Positions 66 to 15,635 of a DNA stretch of 24,000 nucleotides are shown piece by piece. The translations under genes were made by a program, and so were the position numbers. The stretch is taken from NCBI GenBank assembly GCA_035639555.1, contig DASQXU010000259.1:557-24556 (forward strand), in the 5' to 3' direction. How positions within the stretch are numbered: the stretch's first letter is position 1; the number at the start of each line of letters is the position of its first letter. The DNA comes from Thermoleophilaceae bacterium. GTDB taxonomy: Bacteria > Actinomycetota > Thermoleophilia > Solirubrobacterales > Thermoleophilaceae. The notes below the pieces were generated by a model. It was given only the letters and a program-made list of their open reading frames with translations, was not told where the DNA came from and searched no databases.

Positions 66-1352
66 TCAGGCAGCCGCGGGCAGCTCTGCGGAGGCGGTCG
101 CCGCGGTGATCGCCTCGGAGGTGACTCCGACGAGGTGCTCGAGCTCGGCCTCCGAGATCGCGAGCGGCGGCATCAGGACCACGACGTCGCCGAGCGGGCG
201 GATCACTACGCCGCGGTGGCGAGCTTCGAGGGTGACCCGGTGACCCATGGCGAGCTCCGGCGGGTAGTGGCGCAGCTCGATCCCGACCATGAACCCGCAG
301 CGGCGGACCTCGCTCACCGCCGGGTGGGCGGCGATCGGCTCGAGCAGCCGCCCGAGCAGCTCGATCTTCGGCTCCAGGCGCTCGAGGGTGTCCTCCTCGG
401 CGAACACGTCGAGGGTGGCCAGGGCGGCGGCGCAGGCCAGCGGGTTGCCGGTGTAGGTGTGTCCGTGGAAGAAGGTGCGCCGCTCCCGGGGCTCGCCGAG
501 GAATCCTTCGTAGACCCGCTCGGTGGTGAGCGTCGCGGCGAGCGGCAGGTAGCCACCGGTCAGTCCCTTGGCCAGGCACATGAGGTCGGGGGCGACCCCC
601 TCGTGCTCGCAGGCGAACATCCGCCCGGTGCGGCCGAAGCCGGTGGCGACCTCGTCGACGACCAGCAGGACGCCGTAGCGGTCGCACAGCTCGCGGACCT
701 CCCGGAGGTAGCCGGGCGGGTGCACGAGCATCCCCGCCGCGCCCTGGACCAGCGGCTCCATGACCACTGCGGCAACCCGGCGATGGTGCGCGGACAACAG
801 GCGCTGCATGTCGCCCGCATCACCCGGCCGGGCCTTGAGCGTGTCGAACAGCAGCGGCCGGTAGAGCGAGTGGAAGAGGTCGATGCCGCCGACCGACACC
901 GACCCGAGCGTGTCGCCGTGGTAGGCGTCCTCGAGCGCGATGAACCGTGTGCGCGGCTCGCCCCGCTGGTGCCAGTACTGGAACGCCATCTTGAGCGCGA
1001 TCTCGACCGCCGCCGAGCCCGACTCCGAGTAGAAGACCCGCCTGAGCCCGGGCGGCGAGAGCTCGATCAGCCGCCTTGCCAGCTCGATCCCCGGCGGGTG
1101 GCTCAGGCCGAGCATGGTGGAGTGGGCGACGCGCCCGAGCTGTCCGCGGACCGCGGCGTCGATGCGGGGTTGGCGGTGGCCGTGCACGTTGCACCAGAGC
1201 GAGGAGACCCCGTCGAGGTAGCGACGGCCGGCGGTGTCGATCAGCGTCGTGCCCTCCGCCCGCGCGACGATCAGCGGCTCCTCCGCGCACCAGCCGCGCT
1301 GCTGGGTGAACGGGTGCCAGAGGTATGCGCGGTCGGCGGCGACCAGGTCCAC
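66..1352 (-). CDS. bioA: adenosylmethionine-8-amino-7-oxononanoate aminotransferase (BioA)
   Basis: 428-aa ORF with a GTG start at 1352. Class-III PLP aminotransferase with BioA-type motifs: LWHPFTQ near the N-terminus, SLWCNVHGH, AYHGDT, MEPLVQGAAGM, and the PLP-lysine context CLAKGLTGGYLPL. Lies in a biotin-gene neighbourhood. Confidence 0.9.
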   Translation of the reverse strand: MDLVAADRAYLWHPFTQQRGWCAEEPLIVARAEGTTLIDTAGRRYLDGVSSLWCNVHGHRQPRIDAAVRGQLGRVAHSTMLGLSHPPGIELARRLIELSPPGLRRVFYSESGSAAVEIALKMAFQYWHQRGEPRTRFIALEDAYHGDTLGSVSVGGIDLFHSLYRPLLFDTLKARPGDAGDMQRLLSAHHRRVAAVVMEPLVQGAAGMLVHPPGYLREVRELCDRYGVLLVVDEVATGFGRTGRMFACEHEGVAPDLMCLAKGLTGGYLPLAATLTTERVYEGFLGEPRERRTFFHGHTYTGNPLACAAALATLDVFAEEDTLERLEPKIELLGRLLEPIAAHPAVSEVRRCGFMVGIELRHYPPELAMGHRVTLEARHRGVVIRPLGDVVVLMPPLAISEAELEHLVGVTSEAITAATASAELPAAA

Positions 1353-5873: not shown

Positions 5874-6575
5874 CTAGGCGGCCCGCGTCGCGGTGGCCGG
5901 CGAGCCCAGCCAGTCGTCGAGGGGCAGCGTGGCGCCCGCTGCCGCCAGCGAGCCCGGATCGGTAGGGGGCAGGCCGGCCACCGGCACCCGGGCCAGCCGT
6001 TCGACGGTCGCGCGGTTGGAGCGCTCGACCGGTGAAGGCGCCTCGGGCCACGGGGTCATCACGACACCGACCAGCCCCAGCCCGACCACCCGCGCGGCCT
6101 CCACCGTCAGCAGCGTGTGGCTGATCGTCCCCAGGCCGGCACGAGCGGCGACGAGCACGTTCAGCCCGAGCTCGACCGCGAGATCCCGGACCAGGTAGCG
6201 GCCGCTCAGGGGCACGAGCAGGCCGCCGACTCCCTCGCACACGACGGCGTCGGCGCCGCGGCCGAGCGCCCGAGCCGCGTTCGCGATCGCCCGGGGCTCG
6301 AGCTCGACCCCGGAGAGCTCGGCGGCGAGATGCGGCGAGGCCGGCGGTCCGAAGCGCCAGGGCGCGACCTCCTCCGGCGACTGTCCCGCGCTCGCCGCAC
6401 GAGCGAGCAGCTCGTGGTCGCGCGGCCAGGAGCCGGGTGGCTCGTCGAGGCCGGTCAGCGCCGGCTTGAACGCCGCGACCCGCTCGCCACGCGCGGCGAG
6501 GGCCGCGCACACCGCCCCGGCGACAACGGTCTTTCCGGCGCCGGTGTCGGTGCCGGTGACGAACAGCCCCCGCAA
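5874..6575 (-). CDS. bioD: dethiobiotin synthetase (BioD)
   Basis: 233 aa with a TTG start. The N-terminal P-loop LFVTGTDTGAGKT is typical of BioD. Only 7 nt separate it from the bioF stop. Confidence 0.9.
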   Translation of the reverse strand: MRGLFVTGTDTGAGKTVVAGAVCAALAARGERVAAFKPALTGLDEPPGSWPRDHELLARAASAGQSPEEVAPWRFGPPASPHLAAELSGVELEPRAIANAARALGRGADAVVCEGVGGLLVPLSGRYLVRDLAVELGLNVLVAARAGLGTISHTLLTVEAARVVGLGLVGVVMTPWPEAPSPVERSNRATVERLARVPVAGLPPTDPGSLAAAGATLPLDDWLGSPATATRAA

Positions 6576-6582
6576 ACGCGCG

Positions 6583-7806
6583 CTACGCCGCGTCTGCCAG
6601 CCCGTCGAACACCCGGGCCGCGCCAGCGCTCGCCGCCGGGGCCGGCCGACGAGCGGCCTCGGGCACGACCGAGGCCACGGCCCGCGCGACCTCCCGAAGC
6701 TCGCGTGCCGTGTGGGAGGCCATGGCCGCCAGCCGAAGCCGGGAGCTCCCCGCCGGCACGGTGGGCGGGCGGATTGCCTGGGCGAAGATCCCCTGCTCGA
6801 GCAGCCGCTCGCTGGCGGCCACCGCGGCCTCAGGGTCGCCGATCACCACGGGGACGATGTGGGTCTCCGAGGGATCGGTGGGCACGCCGTCCGCCTGAAG
6901 CGCGGCCCTGAGCACCTCCCCGTTCCGCTGAAGGCGCTCCACCCGGTGGGGCTGCGCTCGCAGGAGCTCGAGCGCGGCGAGCGCCGCCGCCGCCGAGGGC
7001 GGTGGCAGCGCGGTGGAGAAGATCAGCGTGCGCGCGGTGTTGACCAGGTACTTGGCGATCGCCCCCTCGCAGCACACGTAGGCGCCGTAGGAGCCGAGCG
7101 CCTTGCCGAGCGTCCCGAGGACGAGTTCGACCTCGCCCTCGAGCCCGGCGTCGGCCACCGAGCCCCGGCCGCCCGGGCCGACGGCGCCGGTGGCGTGCGC
7201 CTCGTCGACCATCACCCGCGCGTCGAAGCGCTGCGCGAGCTCGACGATCTCCTCCAGCGGCGCGAGGTCCCCGTCCATCGAGAAGACGCCGTCGGTCACG
7301 ATCAGGCTGCCGCGGCCGCCGGCCCGGCGAAGCCCCGACTCGAGCTGCTCGACGTCGCCGTGCTCGTAGATGAACGTCTCGGCCCGGGCCAGGCGGCACC
7401 CGTCGACGATGCTCGCGTGGTTGAGGCGGTCGGAGAACACGACGTCGCCCTCGCGGGCGAGCGCCGAGACCACCCCGACGTTCGCCAAGTACCCCGAGCC
7501 GAACAGGAGGCATGCCTCCGAGCGCTTGAACTCGGCGAGCTGCTCCTCGAGCCGCCGGTGGATCGTCATGTTGCCCGAGACGAGCCGCGATGCCCCGGCG
7601 CCGGCCCCGTAGCGCATCGCGGCCTCGGCGGCGGCCTCCCGCACCTGGGGATGGTCGGCCAGCCCCAGGTAGTTGTTCGAGCAGAGCAGGAGGACCGGCC
7701 GCCCGTCGAGCAAGACCCGGGGGCCCTGCGGCCCCGAGACGACGCGCATCCGCCGGTAGAGCCCCCGACCGCGGATATCCCGCAGCCGCTCCTCGATCTC
7801 GTTCAT
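6583..7806 (-). CDS. bioF: 8-amino-7-oxononanoate synthase (BioF)
   Basis: Alpha-oxoamine synthase motifs: CSNNYLGL, GSGYLAN, DEAHATG and the PLP-lysine context GTLGKALG. The ATG at 7806 shares its A with the bioB TGA (TGATG coupling) and follows GGGGGGA. The track ORF uses an alternative GTG at 7818. Confidence 0.9.
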   Translation of the reverse strand: MNEIEERLRDIRGRGLYRRMRVVSGPQGPRVLLDGRPVLLLCSNNYLGLADHPQVREAAAEAAMRYGAGAGASRLVSGNMTIHRRLEEQLAEFKRSEACLLFGSGYLANVGVVSALAREGDVVFSDRLNHASIVDGCRLARAETFIYEHGDVEQLESGLRRAGGRGSLIVTDGVFSMDGDLAPLEEIVELAQRFDARVMVDEAHATGAVGPGGRGSVADAGLEGEVELVLGTLGKALGSYGAYVCCEGAIAKYLVNTARTLIFSTALPPPSAAAALAALELLRAQPHRVERLQRNGEVLRAALQADGVPTDPSETHIVPVVIGDPEAAVAASERLLEQGIFAQAIRPPTVPAGSSRLRLAAMASHTARELREVARAVASVVPEAARRPAPAASAGAARVFDGLADAA

Positions 7807-9029
7807 CAGTCCCCCCACCCGGCCGGGTCGCGGCCCGGCTCGACCATCACGAGCGCGGGCATCTCGACGGTGTCCGCCTCCGCGGGGTCACGCTCCCTCG
7901 GCCGGTTCTGCGTCCCGTCGGGGCGAGGGGGAACGTGCCGCTTCGGCCGGCGCCGGAGCTGGCGCTCGGGGTTCCAGAGGTTGGCCTCGGACTGGCGGTC
8001 GATCAGCTCGTCGACCGGGGTGCGCGGTGTCTCTCCCTCGAGCCAGCCCGAGCGGTTGTCGGGCCTGGGGCGCTCGCCGTTGTCCGGCTGGCGTCCGACG
8101 TTGAGGCCGAGCTCCTCGAACATCGCCCGGTCCTCCTCGGGCTCGGCGCCGAGCGTGGTCAGGAAGTTGCCCATCATCACCCCGTTGAGCCCCGCCTTAA
8201 CCGCGAGCGGCTGGAGCTCGCCGAGGTTCTCGACCCTCCCGCCGCAGAGCCGGAAGAGCGCCCGGGGCAGGATCAGCCTGAAGATCGCGATCCACTTGAC
8301 CGCCTCCCACGGGTCCATCAGCTCGCGGTCGCCGAACTTCGTGCCGGGCCGCGGGTTGAGCAGGTTGATAGGGACGCTGGTGGGATCGATCTCGGCGAGC
8401 TGGAAGGCCATCTCCACCCGCTGCTCGGGCGTCTCGCCGAGGTTCAAGATCCCCCCGACGCAGGTCTCGAGCCCCGCCTGGCGCACGGCCTCGATCGTGC
8501 GCAGGCGCCCCTCATAGCGCACGGTGGTCGAGACCTCGGGGTAGTAGGACTCCGCCGTCTCCACGTTGTGGTGCACGCGCTGTACACCCGCCTGCCTGAG
8601 CGCGCGAGCGCGCTCGGGCGAGAGGTGGCCCACCGATGCGCAGCGCTTGAGGTTGGTGCGCTCGGCGACGAGCCGCGCTCCCTCGAGCACGGTCTCGAAG
8701 TCGCGCTTCGAGAGCCCCTGTCCCTGGGTGACCATGCAGAAGCGGTGGGCTCCGGCCGCCTCGGCCGCCCGGGCGTGCTCGAGGATCTGCTCGGGGGACA
8801 TCATCGCGTGCATCGGGGTGTCGGCCTCCGCGTAGCGCGACTGGGCGCAGAACCCACAGTCCTCGGCGCAGCCGCCGGACTTGGCGTTGACCAGCGAGCA
8901 CATGTCGGTGGAGTCGCCGAAGCGATCGACACGCGCACGCCACGCGCGTTCGACGAGCGCCTCGATCTCGGCGTGGGAGCGAAGCTGCCCGAGGCGCAAG
9001 GCCTCTTCGTGGCTGATGAGCGGCGGCAA
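7806..9029 (-). CDS. bioB: biotin synthase (BioB), radical SAM, with ~95-aa low-complexity C-terminal tail
   Basis: CAEDCGFC forms the CxxxCxxC radical-SAM cluster at Cys54/58/61. BioB-like core runs through ...FEELGLNVG. TTG start at 9029, 8 nt after the SD GGGGAGG. The tail (7809-8093) keeps a strong coding G/C third-position bias. Confidence 0.9.
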   Translation of the reverse strand: MPPLISHEEALRLGQLRSHAEIEALVERAWRARVDRFGDSTDMCSLVNAKSGGCAEDCGFCAQSRYAEADTPMHAMMSPEQILEHARAAEAAGAHRFCMVTQGQGLSKRDFETVLEGARLVAERTNLKRCASVGHLSPERARALRQAGVQRVHHNVETAESYYPEVSTTVRYEGRLRTIEAVRQAGLETCVGGILNLGETPEQRVEMAFQLAEIDPTSVPINLLNPRPGTKFGDRELMDPWEAVKWIAIFRLILPRALFRLCGGRVENLGELQPLAVKAGLNGVMMGNFLTTLGAEPEEDRAMFEELGLNVGRQPDNGERPRPDNRSGWLEGETPRTPVDELIDRQSEANLWNPERQLRRRPKRHVPPRPDGTQNRPRERDPAEADTVEMPALVMVEPGRDPAGWGD

Positions 9030-9091
9030 GGGTGGGACCTCCCCTGGGCGGTGGATTGGCGCTCACCGTATGCCGGGGGTCGGACGGAGCC

Positions 9092-9907
9092 TCAGCGCCC
9101 CTTCCACCGCGGGCGCCGCTTCTCGGCGAAGGCCCGCACCCCCTCCCTGAAGTCCTCGGAGCGAAAGCACGACTCGCGCAGCGAGATCAGTGAGCGCTCG
9201 ACGTCCTCGGGAAGGTCGGTCGCCGCCCCGCGCAGGGTGCGGATTATCCGCTTGTTCCCGGCCAGGGAGAGCGGCGCGTTCCCCGCGATCTCCGCCGCGA
9301 GCTCGAGCGCCCGCTCGGCGAGCTCGTCCGGCTCGACCACGTCGTTGACCAGTCCCATGCGCTCGGCGCGCTCGGTGTCCACGTTGGCGCCCCGGAAGAA
9401 CAGCTCGCTGGTGTTCGCCGCCCCGCAGACGTCGAGGAACTTCCGAAGCCCCGTGTGCGAGTAGATGAGCCCGAGCTTCGCCGGCGGCATCCCCAGCGTT
9501 ATCCCCCGCGCGGCGACCCTCACGTCGCAGGTCAGCGCGAGCTCGAGCCCACCCCCGATCGCGTGCCCGTTGAGCTGCCCGACGACCGGATAGGCGTAGT
9601 CCTCGAGGGCCTCGATCGCGGCTTGGAACGGGTGGGCGACCAGCTCCTCCGCCTGCTCCTCGAAGTTACCCTCCTCGAGGTTCCCGATGTCGTAGCCGGC
9701 CGAGAACATCGTCCCCTGGCCGGTGATGAGCAGACAGCGCGCATCGAGGGTCCGCGCGGCGCCGGCGAGAGCCTCGAGCATCTCGTGGTCGAGGGCTCCC
9801 CGGCGCTCGGGGTTTGCGATCGTGAGGCGGGCCACCCCCTCGGCCGGCTCGTCGAGGAGCAGCTTGCCCGAAGCGAGCTCCCCGAGGGAGCTCCTACTCG
9901 AGGACAA
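9092..9907 (-). CDS. crotonase-superfamily enzyme (enoyl-CoA hydratase/isomerase family; non-canonical active site, methylmalonyl-CoA-decarboxylase-like layout)
   Basis: 271 aa with a TTG start at 9907, 10 nt after the SD AGGAGGGG. Motifs: FSAGYDI, oxyanion-hole AIGGGLELAL, and the C-terminal EGVRAFAEKRRPRW. The position of the second hydratase Glu reads GMPPAKLG, with no Glu. The gene overlaps the upstream gene by 14 nt. Confidence 0.85.
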   Translation of the reverse strand: MSSSRSSLGELASGKLLLDEPAEGVARLTIANPERRGALDHEMLEALAGAARTLDARCLLITGQGTMFSAGYDIGNLEEGNFEEQAEELVAHPFQAAIEALEDYAYPVVGQLNGHAIGGGLELALTCDVRVAARGITLGMPPAKLGLIYSHTGLRKFLDVCGAANTSELFFRGANVDTERAERMGLVNDVVEPDELAERALELAAEIAGNAPLSLAGNKRIIRTLRGAATDLPEDVERSLISLRESCFRSEDFREGVRAFAEKRRPRWKGR

Positions 9908-10106
9908 CGAGTGGGTCCCCCTCCTGGACCGACTGTCCCTCCTCGCAGAGGATCTCCTTGACGACGCCCTCCTCCTCGGCCTCCACCGGCATCTCCATCT
10001 TCATGGACTCGAGGATCACGAGCGTGTCGCCCTCCTCGACCTCCTGGCCGACCTCGCATTCGATCTTCCAAACGGTGCCGGTGATGTGGGCCTCCACCTC
10101 GGGCAA
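9894..10106 (-). CDS. stand-alone biotinyl (biotin/lipoyl attachment) domain protein, ~70 aa
   Basis: The C-terminal part of track ORF 9894-10574 reads ...GTVWKIECEVGQEVEEGDTLVILESMKMEMPVEAEEEGVVKEILCEEGQSVQEGDPLVVLE, carrying the canonical E(A/S)MKM biotinyl-lysine motif. TTG at 10106 lies 5 nt after GGAGGA, and a GTG at 10097 is an alternative. The rest of the track ORF overlaps plsC and is Arg/Gly-rich junk. Confidence 0.8.
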   Translation of the reverse strand: MPEVEAHITGTVWKIECEVGQEVEEGDTLVILESMKMEMPVEAEEEGVVKEILCEEGQSVQEGDPLVVLE

Positions 10107-10229
10107 GCGGTTCCTCCGGGTCGGTCCGTGGTGCGCGCGGGCACGATACCTTCCCTCGGGCCTGATCCCTGCGCCCGCCGGACCGGCCGGCCGGGTAACG
10201 AAGGCCGCGCCCTCGGGTAGCAAGCCTCT

Positions 10230-11006
10230 GTGAAGCCGCAGGTCTACAAGGACCCGAGGCCGGCCGAGTACTTCAGCCGCTTCCACGAGCGCGCGCGGAC
10301 CAAGCGGCCGGACTACATCTACGACCTCGCCCGGCTGCTGCTGACCCCTTGCGTGATGCTGTTCTTCCGCGCGCGCTGCATCGACTCGCAGCACGTGCCG
10401 CCGGACGGCCCGGCGATCATCGCGCCGAACCACTTCTCGTTCCTCGACCACTTCTTCGTCGCGGTCTACCTCCGGCGCAAGGTGCGCTTCATGGCCAAGT
10501 CGCAACTGTTCAAGCGGCCGATGCAGTTCATCTTCACCCACGGCGGCGTCTTCCCGGTGCGGCGCGGCCACCACGACGAGGAGGCCTTCGAGACCGCGCG
10601 CCGGATCCTCCGCCGGGGTGACCTCGTCGTGATGTACGCGGAGGCCGGCCGCTCCCGCACCCAGGAGCTAGGGAAGCCCCGCTACGGCCTCGGAAGGCTG
10701 GCGCTCGAGTCCGGGGTGCCGGTCATCCCCACGGTGATCGCCGGCTCGGAGAAGGCGCGCGACTGGAAGCGGCTGCGCTTCCCGAAGGTGACCGTCCAGT
10801 ACGGCGACCCGCTTCGCTTCGAGGGCGTCGAGAAGCCCTCCCGCGACCAGGCCCAGGCCGCGTCTGAGGTCATCTTCGAGCAGGTGCGGCGCATGCACAC
10901 CGCCCTGCGTCGCGGCGGGCGCCGCAGCGCCGTGCGCGCCGCGCGGGCGGCCCGCAGGGCGGCGCGCGCCGCCGAGGGAGCCACGCGCCGGCCGGTCATC
11001 GACTGA
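10230..11006 (+). CDS. plsC: 1-acyl-sn-glycerol-3-phosphate / lysophospholipid acyltransferase (PlsC/LPLAT family)
   Basis: 258 aa with a GTG start. The HX4D catalytic motif is present as NHFSFLD. FPVRRG, YAEAGRSR (EGTR-like block) and VPVIPTVIAGS follow. The C-terminal tail is basic and Ala/Arg-rich. Confidence 0.8.
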   Translation: MKPQVYKDPRPAEYFSRFHERARTKRPDYIYDLARLLLTPCVMLFFRARCIDSQHVPPDGPAIIAPNHFSFLDHFFVAVYLRRKVRFMAKSQLFKRPMQFIFTHGGVFPVRRGHHDEEAFETARRILRRGDLVVMYAEAGRSRTQELGKPRYGLGRLALESGVPVIPTVIAGSEKARDWKRLRFPKVTVQYGDPLRFEGVEKPSRDQAQAASEVIFEQVRRMHTALRRGGRRSAVRAARAARRAARAAEGATRRPVID

Positions 11007-12019: not shown

Positions 12020-12676
12020 CTAGGCGATCACATTCCGCAGGACGCCGATCCCCTCGACCTCCAGCTCTACCACGTCCCCCGGCCGAAGCCAGCGGCCGTC
12101 GCCGTGCTCGAGGATGCAGCCGCGGCCGACCGTGCCCGACCCGAGCACGTCTCCGGCCTGGAGGCCGGACGTGTTGCGCGCTGCCTGGCTGAGGATCTGC
12201 TCCCACGACCAGTGCATCCCGCCGGTCCGTGAGTCGGTCCGCACCTCGCCGTTGACGCGCGCCAGCGCCCGCAGGTCGAGGTCCGCCGGCAGCTCCTCCG
12301 GCGACACGAGCTCCGGCCCGAGCGACGTCGCGAAGTCCTTGGCCTTGGCCGGACCGAGCCCGACCGCCATCTCGCGGGCTTGGAGGTCGCGGGCGGACCA
12401 GTCGTTCATGATCGTGAAGCCCTCCGGCCGTCCGCCGTCGCCGATGACGCAGGCCAGCTCGAGCTCGTAGTCGAGCATCTCGGTGTCGGCCGGCTTCGGC
12501 ACCGCATCGCCGTGGCCGTAGATGGCGGCCGGATTCGAGAAGTAGAACACCGGGAGCTCGTACCACGCGGGGGGCACCTCGAGGCCCCGGCTCGCGCGCG
12601 CGTTCCGGACGTGCTCCTCGAACGCCATGAAGTCGCGCACCGAGGGCGGCTGGCCGTCGGGGAACGGTCGCCTCAC
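12020..12676 (-). CDS. fumarylacetoacetate hydrolase (FAH) family protein, catalytic domain only
   Basis: Region RDFMAFEEHV...PPAWYELPVFYFSNPAAIYGHGDAV...DYELELACVIG...KDF... parallels the catalytic domain of fumarylacetoacetase. The track ORF start (12892) lies inside lrp in another frame and reads as junk. GTG at 12676 overlaps the lrp TGA (GTGA). GTG 12640 and ATG 12628 are alternatives. Confidence 0.78.
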   Translation of the reverse strand: MRRPFPDGQPPSVRDFMAFEEHVRNARASRGLEVPPAWYELPVFYFSNPAAIYGHGDAVPKPADTEMLDYELELACVIGDGGRPEGFTIMNDWSARDLQAREMAVGLGPAKAKDFATSLGPELVSPEELPADLDLRALARVNGEVRTDSRTGGMHWSWEQILSQAARNTSGLQAGDVLGSGTVGRGCILEHGDGRWLRPGDVVELEVEGIGVLRNVIA

Positions 12677-13122
12677 CGCTGGAAGAGGGTAGAGAGCACG
12701 ACCTCGGTCACCGTCCGGGTGATGCCCTCCTGGGCGCGGATGCGCTCGAGCGCGGTCTCGAGGTCCTTGGTGTCCTCGGCCATCACGTGGAGCAAGGCAC
12801 TCGCCTCCCCCGCGACCGTGTGGGCCGACACCACGCCCGGCTCGCGCTCCACCGCGCGCTTGATCGCCTCTCCGGGCATGCGACCGTCGCAATAGAGGTC
12901 CACGAAGGCCTCGGCGTGCCAGCCGTAGGCGAGCGGGTCGACGATCGTCGTGTAGCCGCGGATCACCCCGTCCCGCTCCAGGCGGTCGACGCGCCGCTTC
13001 ACCGCCGGGGCCGAGAGGTGGACGTGCTCGCCGATGTCCTTGAACGAGCGCCGGGCGTTCTGGCGAAGCAGCGCAACGATCCTACGGTCGATGTCGTCGA
13101 GAAGTGGCTGAACTGTCGCCAT
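12673..13122 (-). CDS. Lrp/AsnC family transcriptional regulator
   Basis: 149 aa. N-terminal HTH (LDDIDRRIVALLRQNARRSFKDIGEHVHLSAPAVKRRVDRLERDGVI) followed by a C-terminal RAM/AsnC ligand domain. Divergent from hppD, a known arrangement for tyrosine-catabolism regulators in actinomycetes. Confidence 0.9.
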   Translation of the reverse strand: MATVQPLLDDIDRRIVALLRQNARRSFKDIGEHVHLSAPAVKRRVDRLERDGVIRGYTTIVDPLAYGWHAEAFVDLYCDGRMPGEAIKRAVEREPGVVSAHTVAGEASALLHVMAEDTKDLETALERIRAQEGITRTVTEVVLSTLFQR

Positions 13123-13195
13123 GTTGCAAGAAAGCGGCGTTGAAACGTCGCCCTGATGCGGGAAACATTACATCGATAGCGAAGGGAGGAGGAGG
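13123..13195. promoter_or_regulatory. divergent lrp/asnC - hppD control region
   Basis: 73-bp gap, visibly less G+C-rich than its surroundings (ATGTTGCAAGAAAG..., GGAAACATTACATCGATAG). Carries the strong hppD SD GAAGGGAGGAGGAGG. Individual promoter and operator elements were not resolved. Confidence 0.4.
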
Positions 13196-14329
13196 ATGGC
13201 GACAGAGCAGCTTCAGACCCACCCGCGCTCCGAGGCCGCGGACCGCATGCCGCTCCACGGCATCGACCACCTGGAGCTGTACGTCGGCAACGCCACCCAG
13301 GCCGCCTACTACTTCACCCGCGCCTTCGGCTTCACCGAGACGGCGTACGCCGGGCTCGAGACCGGTCGGCGCGACCGGGTCTCGAGAGTGCTCGAGCAAG
13401 GGCGCATACGGCTCGTGCTCACCGGCACGCTGAGGGGGGACGACGAGATCGCCGAGCATCACCGCCGGCACGGAGACGGGGTGCACAAGGTCGCCCTGTC
13501 GGTTCCGGACGCCGAGGCCGCGTACTGGCACGCGGTCGACCACGGCGCTCGCGGTGTGGAGCTGCCGCGCTGGGTCGAGGACGAGCACGGGCGGGTGCAG
13601 CTCGCGTCAGTCGCCACCTACGGAGAGACGCTTCACCTCTTCGTTCAGCGGGAGGACTACCGCGGCCCATTCCTGCCCGGCTTCGAAGCTCGCCAGCCGG
13701 CCGAGCAAGATCTCGACCGCTTGCTGCTGGTCGGCATCGACCACGTGGTCGGCAACGTCGAGCTCGGCCATATGGAGGAGTGGGTCTCCTACTACGAGCG
13801 TGTCTTCGGCATGACCGAGATGATCCACTTCTCGGACGAGGCGATCTCGACCGAGTACTCGGCGCTGATGTCGAAGGTGGTCACCGACGGCTCGGGACGG
13901 GTCAAGTTCCCGATCAACGAGCCGGCCGAGGGCAAGCGCAAGTCACAGATCGAGGAGTACCTCGAGTTCTACCGCGGGGCCGGCGTGCAGCACGTGGCGC
14001 TCTCCACGCTGGACATCGTGGACGCCGTCTCCGAGCTCCGTAGCCGAGGGGTCGAGTTCCTGCCCATCCCCGAGAGCTACTACGAGGAGGTCCCGGCGCG
14101 GATCGGCGAGATCGACCAGGACTTGGCCGACCTCCGCCGGCTCGGCATCCTGGCGGACCGCGACGACGAGGGCTACCTGCTGCAGATCTTCACCAAGCCG
14201 CTCGGCGACCGGCCCACGGTGTTCTTCGAGGTGATCGAGCGCCACGGCTCCCGCGGCTTCGGCGAGGGCAACTTCAAGGCGCTCTTCGAGGCGCTCGAGC
14301 GCGAGCAGGAGAGGAGGGGGAACCTATGA
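13196..14329 (+). CDS. hppD: 4-hydroxyphenylpyruvate dioxygenase
   Basis: 377 aa. Two-domain vicinal-oxygen-chelate layout: GIDHLELYVGNA..., GIDHVVGNVELG.... C-terminal motifs: GVQHVAL, YLLQIFTKP, FFEVIERHG and GFGEGNFKALFEA. Confidence 0.9.
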   Translation: MATEQLQTHPRSEAADRMPLHGIDHLELYVGNATQAAYYFTRAFGFTETAYAGLETGRRDRVSRVLEQGRIRLVLTGTLRGDDEIAEHHRRHGDGVHKVALSVPDAEAAYWHAVDHGARGVELPRWVEDEHGRVQLASVATYGETLHLFVQREDYRGPFLPGFEARQPAEQDLDRLLLVGIDHVVGNVELGHMEEWVSYYERVFGMTEMIHFSDEAISTEYSALMSKVVTDGSGRVKFPINEPAEGKRKSQIEEYLEFYRGAGVQHVALSTLDIVDAVSELRSRGVEFLPIPESYYEEVPARIGEIDQDLADLRRLGILADRDDEGYLLQIFTKPLGDRPTVFFEVIERHGSRGFGEGNFKALFEALEREQERRGNL

Positions 14330-14372
14330 CGGCACCGGGTGCCTCGCCTCTCGTGCGCCCGCCGGCGTTAGC

Positions 14373-14399
14373 GCGGGTCCGGCCGGGGGCGGGTCCGGC
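14373..14399 (+). repeat. tandem direct repeat GCGGGTCCGGC (x2, 16-nt period) upstream of hmgA
   Basis: Exact 11-mers at 14373-14383 and 14389-14399, 31-57 nt upstream of the hmgA ATG. Function unknown. Confidence 0.5.
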
Positions 14400-14429
14400 G
14401 CGCGGACTCCACCCCAAGGAGGGTTGGCG

Positions 14430-15635
14430 ATGAGATACGAGGTTCGGGGCGAGGTCCCCAAGAAGCGACACACGGTCTTCCGCGACGACGGGCGCCTCCT
14501 CGTCGAGGAGGTGATGGGCTTCGAAGGTTTCTCCGGGAACGAGTCGATTCTCTACCACCTCCAGACGCCGTGCCGCGTCAAGGAGCTCGGCGAGTTCGCC
14601 CCGATCGAGCGAGAGGAGTGGGTGCCGGAGGCGCACGCCTGGCATCACCTGGAGACCGGCGGCGTCGAGCCCGCCGGCGACCCCGTCCACGGCCGTCGTC
14701 TCCTCATGTGGAACGAAGACGTGGAGATCGCCCTGTGCCGGCCGACCGAGGAGCAGCGGTTCTTCTTCCGTGACGGCGAGGGCGACGAGGTGATCTTCGT
14801 CCATCGGGGGTCGGGCGAGATCGAGACGACCTTCGGCACCCTCAGCTACCGCGAGCACGACTACGTCGTCATCCCGCGCGGTACGACCTATCGCTTTCGC
14901 CCGGAGGGAGAGCAGCTGTGGCTCACCTTCTTCACGCCGGGCGAGATCGAGACGCCCGACCGCTATCGAAACCGCTACGGGCAGCTACTGGAGCACGCCC
15001 CCTACTCGCAGCGTGACTTCCGCCCGCCCGGGGAGCTGGTCACCCACCGCGAGCAAGGCGAGTTCGAGCTCGTTGTCCGGGCCCGCGACGGCTACCAGCG
15101 CTATCTGCTCGATTACCACCCGCTCGACGTGGTCGGGTGGGACGGCTACGTCTACCCCTACACGTTCAACATCGACGACTTCGAGCCGGTCAGCGGGCGC
15201 ATCCACATGCCGCCCCCGGTCCACCAGACCTTCCAGGGCCCGAACTTCGTGATCTGCTCGTTCTGTCCGCGCCAGCTCGACTTCGATCCGGACGCCGTCC
15301 CGATCCCCTACAACCACTCCAACCTGCAGTCGGAGGAGATGATCTATTACGTCGCCGGCCACTTCGGGTCGCGGAAGGGCGTCGGCGTCGGGTCGATCAC
15401 CCTGCACCCCTCGGGGCTGCCCCACGGCCCGCAGCCGGGACTGTACGAGAAGTCACTCGGGAAGAAGTGGACGGACGAGCTGGCGGTGATGTGCGACACC
15501 TTCCGCCCGCTTCGCCTCAGCGCACTGGCGGGCGAGCTGGACGACGGGCGCTACGCGCTCAGCTGGTACGAGGCTTCCGCGGATGCGGAACACGCCGGGG
15601 CGGGAAGCCCGGCGGGGGTCACGAGCCACCTCTAG
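14430..15635 (+). CDS. hmgA: homogentisate 1,2-dioxygenase (short bacterial type)
   Basis: ~401 aa. ATG 14430 lies 7 nt after AAGGAGGG (14416-14423), so the track TTG at 14424 is less likely. Cupin-type protein with ...GFSGNESILYH..., FRPPGE, HMPPPVHQTF and HPSGLPHGPQPG. Sits directly downstream of hppD. Confidence 0.87.
   Translation: MRYEVRGEVPKKRHTVFRDDGRLLVEEVMGFEGFSGNESILYHLQTPCRVKELGEFAPIEREEWVPEAHAWHHLETGGVEPAGDPVHGRRLLMWNEDVEIALCRPTEEQRFFFRDGEGDEVIFVHRGSGEIETTFGTLSYREHDYVVIPRGTTYRFRPEGEQLWLTFFTPGEIETPDRYRNRYGQLLEHAPYSQRDFRPPGELVTHREQGEFELVVRARDGYQRYLLDYHPLDVVGWDGYVYPYTFNIDDFEPVSGRIHMPPPVHQTFQGPNFVICSFCPRQLDFDPDAVPIPYNHSNLQSEEMIYYVAGHFGSRKGVGVGSITLHPSGLPHGPQPGLYEKSLGKKWTDELAVMCDTFRPLRLSALAGELDDGRYALSWYEASADAEHAGAGSPAGVTSHL

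Follow-up and report, generated by a model that had tools for sequence, protein, structure and literature searches.

A stand-alone biotinyl carrier and a crotonase beside the biotin genes of Solirubrobacterales, probably the detached end of a carboxylase-BKACE operon

In a stretch of 24,000 nucleotides from a Thermoleophilaceae bacterium (the window), a very small biotinyl-domain protein (the carrier) and a crotonase (ECH2) are encoded directly upstream of bioB, bioF and bioD (Table 1), which raises the question of whether this pair takes part in biotin synthesis. A first-pass annotation had offered two answers, not mutually exclusive: (a) the carrier is a biotin acceptor acting as a sink or sensor, its apo form tuning repression as in E. 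coli, and (b) the pair belongs to an unrecognised route to the pimeloyl precursor. Here, we propose another origin. The carrier and crotonase are probably the detached 3′ end of an ECH1–carboxyltransferase (CT)–BKACE–carrier–ECH2 operon, which would encode a split acyl-CoA carboxylase module. The linkage, co-occurrence and gene order of this module are supported by genome comparison.

Table 1. Positions of the features discussed, numbered along the window
Feature	Position	Strand	Residues, scores or remarks
bioA-like class-III aminotransferase	66..1352	-	PF00202, E 9e-101; 4.5 kb 3′ of bioD
bioD	5874..6575	-	TIGR00347, 133 bits, above cut-off
bioF (longest ORF)	6583..7818	-	TIGR00858, 482 bits, above cut-off
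bioB with C-terminal extension	7806..9029	-	TIGR00433, 353 bits, above cut-off
Two-part promoter-like motif CGTCCG-N10-TACGGT between the crotonase gene and bioB	9065..9086	-	PafBC promoter geometry
Non-hydratase crotonase ECH2, 271 aa	9092..9907	-	Y72, E122, P142, Y149
Putative stand-alone biotinyl carrier, TB7.3/PRK05889 type	9894..10106	-	70 aa, Lys36 in SMKM
Shine-Dalgarno GGAGGA of the carrier gene	10112..10117	-	sequence
-10-like hexamer TATCGT 5′ of the carrier	10143..10148	-	putative promoter element
plsC-like acyltransferase, divergent	10230..11006	+	equally conserved; control for synteny without functional link

The carrier matches Pfam Biotin_lipoyl over residues 2-69 (E 2.9e-21) and NCBIfam NF004547 (TB7.3-type) over residues 3-69, with 83.6 bits for a cut-off of 75. 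Together with the GGAGGA upstream of its TTG start codon, these matches confirm the reading frame of about 70 codons, restricted to a biotinyl domain and with a good Shine-Dalgarno sequence, that had been described from the letters alone. In biotinyl domains, the MKM lysine lies about 35 residues from the C-terminus (PMC3048393), a position rule that Lys36 of this single 70-residue domain fits, and the ESMKME motif is invariant among 16 carrier sequences. Across the order Solirubrobacterales, the identity of the carrier is 67-90% and that of the crotonase 54-78%; since both are conserved across the order, both are real genes. A TAnnnT hexamer is also present 5′ of the carrier gene in all the related loci listed. 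A search for homologous proteins returned close relatives only, and their names were uninformative; the relatives with a named source are Thermoleophilaceae and Solirubrobacterales. Elsewhere in this genome (L061, contig C422:2336-2560), a second small biotin/lipoyl-domain match lies between two genes that, by their sequence, are probably pxpC-like and pxpA-like.

The crotonase matches Pfam ECH_1 (E 1.2e-40) and is not a canonical hydratase with two catalytic Glu. Indeed, Glu122 is retained, while the second position, aligned with a Glu of 5zai, is occupied by Pro142; a Pro stands there in 46 of the 47 sequences of the order, in which E122, Y149 and Y72 are invariant. The earlier description of an ScpB-like enzyme keeping the first Glu and devoid of the second is thus upheld. 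With E. coli ScpB the crotonase has 30% identity, and its E122, P142, Y149 and G153 align with E113, P133, Y140 and G144. We assume H66, G110, E113, P133 and Y140 to be the active-site residues of ScpB; of these, the G, E, P and Y are kept, whereas His66 is replaced by Tyr72 in 47/47 sequences. The crotonase also differs from ScpB by a score under the PRK11423 cut-off (164.8 < 257) and by having no adjoining mutase. In other classes, both catalytic Glu of ECH2 are gone and Gln occupies the first Glu position (17/17). The same Gln is found in EchA6, a catalytically inactive acyl-CoA shuttle (PMC7688586). The window crotonase is unlike EchA6 in keeping Glu122 and Tyr149, and it scores 141 on PRK07854, for which the cut-off is 237; one ECH2 of another class, devoid of both Glu, reaches 181, still under this cut-off.

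In a tree comparing ECH2 with the other crotonases of this genome, all the crotonases that follow a carrier, along with an unlinked relative from family f7, form one branch (SH-aLRT 97). When E. coli ScpB and mycobacterial EchA6 are included, EchA6 is the sister of the ECH2 proteins of other classes with moderate support (89/87) and ScpB joins the wider ECH2 group (84/76). The data neither reject nor establish a single clade for ECH2 (p-AU 0.35), and strict orthology with ScpB or EchA6 is not claimed. An AlphaFold model searched with Foldseek gave a generic crotonase fold that does not discriminate subfamilies, and the predicted complex of ECH2 with the carrier, scored 0.00, gives no verdict and counts neither way. 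The f7 relatives (L104-L115) are ScpB-like, with 40-43% identity and Tyr149 kept; they stand near a PEP carboxykinase-like gene, with no carrier, BKACE orthologue or bio genes nearby.

How tightly is the pair bound to the biotin genes? Both genes were detected by tblastn in 34 of 41 Solirubrobacterales genomes and are adjacent in 32 of these, in a syntenic block where plsC, glpK and a glycosyltransferase on one strand are followed by the carrier, the crotonase, variable inserts, bioB, bioF, bioD and later bioA; a bioA-like cluster comes after bioD in many relatives. We confirmed that, in the window, bioB starts 62 nt 3′ of the crotonase and is followed by bioF and bioD. The crotonase and bioB are co-oriented and less than 8 kb apart in 40/40 loci having both. 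The expectation that relatives keep the pair near bio genes is thus borne out across the order, but not the tight linkage: the gap is at most 110 nt in only 10 of the 40 loci, and in the other 30 it holds 0.5-7.9 kb of unrelated, often antisense genes. The 14-nt overlap of the carrier and crotonase ORFs, described earlier as translational coupling, is confirmed in the window. This overlap is not conserved in the relatives, where the gaps, approximate as they come from a simple custom gene caller, range from -14 to over +100. As to the other side of the block, the window has an insertion 5′ of plsC (12673-15635), in which an Lrp regulator is encoded divergently from the tyrosine catabolism genes hppD and hmgA-like, and glpK is absent there from its usual position.

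In this block, the constancy of plsC and glpK equals that of the bio genes, and the proximity of the pair to the latter may by itself be inherited synteny. Moreover, four genomes have the pair although searches found no bioB and no bioD in them (G040, 100% complete; G361, 99%; G183, 95%; G301, 94%), and three genomes retain bioB and have lost the crotonase (G035, G039 and G096). With a loose linkage to bioB and a pair that is kept without bioB and bioD, the locus does not behave as a biotin operon, and a role of the pair as a component of biotin synthesis is mostly not supported.

The hexamer TACGGT in the 62-nt gap, previously put forward as a possible -10 box of an independent bioB promoter, which would speak against the first-pass reading, turned out to be part of a conserved bipartite element. 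Indeed, GTCCG-N10-YAnnnT is found within 80 nt of bioB in 43/45 loci, against 1/52 carrier upstream regions and a background of about 1% of the genes in this genome. All but two of the 44 matches have the N10 spacing (42), and over the whole genome there are 23 occurrences with N10 and 5-8 with other spacings. Besides the window, the element stands upstream of bioB in L003, L031-L039 and L065-L123; in family f5, whose bioB is missing or displaced, it stands before bioF. This genome (G000) has further copies on contigs C334, C258, C24, C92 and C74, and the DNA-repair genes that the motif precedes here are, by their sequence, presumably recA-, lexA- and priA-like. It also encodes a fused WYL-WCX/HTH_PafC protein, which is PafBC-like, on C222 (L348:756-2816). 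The bioB element shares the 22-nt geometry of the PafBC promoter, with the consensus tGTCgg(N10)tA(N3)T (PMC8635444), and differs from it by its upstream element, CGTCCG. The bio genes may be under PafBC control. Thus bioBFD possesses a promoter-like element of its own, though it may also be reached by read-through from the carrier promoter. A scan for sigma-70 promoters and terminators, which omits the actinobacterial -10-only type, detected none in the gap, and no report placing bio genes within the PafBC regulon was found in the literature checked so far. The presence of a PafBC-type motif before bio genes throughout the order points to a connection, open to testing, of biotin synthesis with DNA damage, to which it may respond.

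Three features of the bio genes can be added. In f5 loci L083, L087, L100 and L103, bioF comes after the crotonase and bioB is gone from the block; it is on another contig in G028 and G037 and was not found in G033. BioB of the window extends about 95 residues past its BATS domain (7806-8100), and the conserved part of this extension, to about residue 375, is rich in Pro, Arg and Asp and has no Pfam match. Finally, a rubredoxin-like gene convergent to bioA, followed by a NUDIX gene, is found in L066, L078, L080, L084, L089, L092, L101 and L102.

These observations bear on both biotin-related proposals. The only biotin ligase found in this genome (91% complete) has 237 aa, with catalytic and C-terminal domains but no HTH, and aligns to BirA models from position 73-103 onward. 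Because this ligase lacks the HTH domain, BirA sensing of the E. coli type is without its repressor here, and idea (a) fails in its E. coli form. The carrier could still be a module-independent biotin store or sink that works without BirA and was kept beside bioBFD for that reason. This would agree with its conservation being higher than that of ECH2, with its persistence near bioB in the three genomes where ECH2, CT and BKACE were not found, with its retention alone in family f45, with the shared orientation of ECH2 and bioB within 8 kb in all 40 loci having both, and with the lack of a detected terminator in the crotonase-bioB gap. We nonetheless consider it unlikely: BirA-type sensing is unavailable, plsC and glpK are equally conserved neighbours, the carrier has no bio genes nearby in other classes, and bioB has its own motif behind inserts that are often antisense. 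As for idea (b), neither BioW nor BioC above its cut-off was found in this 91% complete genome, the pair is near bioBFD across the order, and a reaction of the BKACE type could conceivably connect 3-oxopimelate with glutaryl-CoA and acetoacetate. This route is weakened by the genomes described above, four with the pair and no bioB or bioD found and three with bioB despite the loss of ECH2, and we regard it as very improbable.

The neighbourhood of the carrier in other actinobacteria supports the operon origin proposed here. The carrier was searched phylum-wide, in a survey that covers Actinomycetota (unpublished genomes are left out of the following counts of 28 and 36 loci). In families outside Thermoleophilia, the gene order is ECH1–CT–BKACE–carrier–ECH2–pdtaS, often 3′ of sigH-rshA. 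Of the 28 loci concerned, CT is present in 24, BKACE in 21 and ECH2 in 20; all five genes are in order in 11 and partial forms occur in the 17 others. No match to bioB, bioF, bioD or bioA was found in 36 carrier loci outside Thermoleophilia. A consistent tie of the pair to acyl-CoA carboxylase genes, which the first-pass annotation had cited among the observations that would speak against its reading, is thus what is seen outside the order, with CT and BKACE as neighbours and no bio genes. In the mycobacterial-type family f45, only the carrier occupies the slot, in the order sigH-rshA-carrier-pdtaS, presumably that around M. tuberculosis Rv3221c.

The front half of the operon was found in this genome as well. 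ECH1, CT, BKACE, a family III CoA-transferase and a MerR regulator are encoded on contig C123, with a divergent acyl-CoA dehydrogenase; the remark that the window holds no carboxyltransferase partner is therefore correct, CT being located elsewhere. In 20 contiguous relatives, BKACE is on the contig of the carrier, 10-36 kb away and on the other strand. The BKACE orthologues are a distinct group (at least 57% identity, the next group being at most 41%) and occur in 30 of 201 genomes of the phylum, 29 of which have a carrier over the cut-off (26/27 without the unpublished G181, G225 and G263, which bear on no other claim made here). Among 26 genomes of the order, 22 have ECH2 together with the BKACE orthologue, and in the remaining four neither was found; likewise, CT was not found in the three of these four that were tested. 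As these genomes are kin, the joint absences represent few independent events, maybe two or three. The loss of the module in G035, G039, G096 and family f45 has spared the carrier, which leaves room for a second carrier role. Against the module stands family f7, with its ECH2 relative and no carrier or BKACE orthologue. On C123, ECH1 and CT enclose a coupled gene of the arginase family (L188:4876-5730), which remains with ECH1 in G039 after the loss of the rest.

In the detached-operon reading, the front half and the tail would have been separated in Solirubrobacterales, the front half now lying 10-36 kb off in opposite orientation and the tail having come to stand before bioBFD. The carrier would be the biotinyl subunit for the module CT and would receive its carboxyl group from the general biotin carboxylase, a fused enzyme, except in two lineages that have a dedicated one lacking a carrier domain. 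Indeed, L166 and L172 have at the operon head a biotin carboxylase of 440-443 aa; as it has no biotinyl domain, a separate carrier is explained in these lineages. On the other hand, the one biotin carboxylase of four single-contig relatives is already fused to a biotinyl domain, which counts against this reading because it does not account for a separate carrier. We do not regard the second biotin carboxylase of this genome, on C53, as a dedicated partner since its protein is 96% identical to that on C375, with the same flank; these two accA loci are probably a strain duplicate from a mixed assembly.

Which reactions might such a module perform? CT is one family across classes; overall, it matches PCC and transcarboxylase 12S with E 1e-157 and is more distant from MCC/GCC (E 1e-84 to 1e-100), while its loop GAGxYxMCGxAYxP is shared with AccD1 (MCC-type) and is unlike the PCC loop. 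BKACE retains its zinc and catalytic residues (HxH, Glu and RVGxED), and ECH1 retains the second Glu only. We tentatively suggest, as a serious candidate that falls somewhat short of an even chance, a route for 3-branched acyl-CoAs resembling Liu, the leucine/isovalerate pathway, and Atu, the acyclic terpene pathway. The acyl-CoA dehydrogenase would form a 3-branched enoyl-CoA, CT and the carrier would carboxylate it and ECH1 would hydrate the product; a lyase encoded elsewhere would then release acetyl-CoA and a free beta-keto acid, to be cleaved by BKACE with acetyl-CoA, and the family III CoA-transferase would recycle acetoacetate. The dehydrogenase, the biotin carboxylase system, the one-Glu hydratase and the MCC-type loop of CT are consistent with this likeness. 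The PCC-like character of CT overall and the lack of a lyase gene in the module count against it, and the module further differs from Liu and Atu by its separate carrier and its additional BKACE and family III CoA-transferase. No match to an HMGL-type lyase was found in the 36 carrier loci; this genome has a separate CT-hydratase-HMGL-like cluster on C180.

A stand-alone carrier for a split acyl-CoA carboxylase has a counterpart in B. subtilis BLAP/YngHB (PDB 1z6h), the best PDB match of the window carrier (E 4.9e-15); the window carrier stays under the PRK08225 cut-off (82.6 < 95). BLAP/YngHB belongs, we assume, to the yng methylcrotonyl-CoA carboxylase operon. In comparison with yng, the module has a CT of a PCC-like family with an MCC-type loop, an added BKACE and no HMG-CoA lyase.

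Alternatively, CT, the carrier and BKACE could constitute an ATP-independent system resembling transcarboxylase, in which the zinc TIM-barrel enzyme would take CO2 from a beta-keto acid and load the carrier with it for transfer by CT to an acyl-CoA, or the reverse. In line with this, most lineages have no dedicated biotin carboxylase, BKACE is immediately 5′ of the carrier in most loci and transcarboxylase 12S is the second-best PDB match of CT. Yet the Claisen residues of BKACE are intact, two lineages do have a dedicated biotin carboxylase at the operon head, and CT and the carrier occur with no adjacent BKACE in 4 loci, so that this system seems quite unlikely to us. Equally doubtful is the extension of this idea to an unrecognised transcarboxylase of soil actinobacteria, of which mycobacterial TB7.3, perhaps with EchA6, would be the surviving piece.

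Within the carboxylase module that we favour, ECH2 looks accessory because 8 of the 28 module loci lack it. In the order, it is probably a biotin-independent, ScpB-like decarboxylase that would remove wrongly carboxylated (alkyl)malonyl-CoA; in other classes, it is probably an EchA6-like acyl-CoA binder. The active-site residues of ECH2 differ between its groups, which counts against the detached-operon reading, as does a single ECH2 clade that is not demonstrated. In f45 genomes, EchA6 is unlinked from the carrier.

The module also hints at the original role of TB7.3 (Rv3221c, NF004547/PRK05889), so far unexplained. Like the window carrier, which exceeds the cut-off of this family, TB7.3 is a stand-alone biotinyl domain of 70-71 aa, listed as a putative BCCP (PMC3048393). 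The TB7.3-type carriers of f45 are 40-47% identical to that of the window and sit between sigH-rshA and pdtaS, the slot of the whole module in other families; the window carrier differs in keeping its crotonase neighbour and in adjoining bioBFD instead of sigH/pdtaS. An ancestral context is thereby provided for TB7.3, as its gene ends an operon with CT, BKACE and an EchA6-related crotonase in several actinobacterial families.

In the literature on TB7.3, BKACE, carboxylases or Solirubrobacter biotin, we found nothing on this module or on the combination. The families of its parts are known; added here are the five-gene form in one contiguous stretch, the slot in common with TB7.3-type carriers, the position of ECH2 relative to ScpB and EchA6, and the motif of PafBC type before bioB. 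The interest of the locus shifts from biotin synthesis to a carboxylase-BKACE module that is widespread and unstudied and offers a few proteins for assays. Finally, metagenome contigs L282, L286 and L304, possibly from outside Actinomycetota, encode members of this BKACE group with different surroundings; one of them is at 37% GC and two have a crotonase directly upstream.
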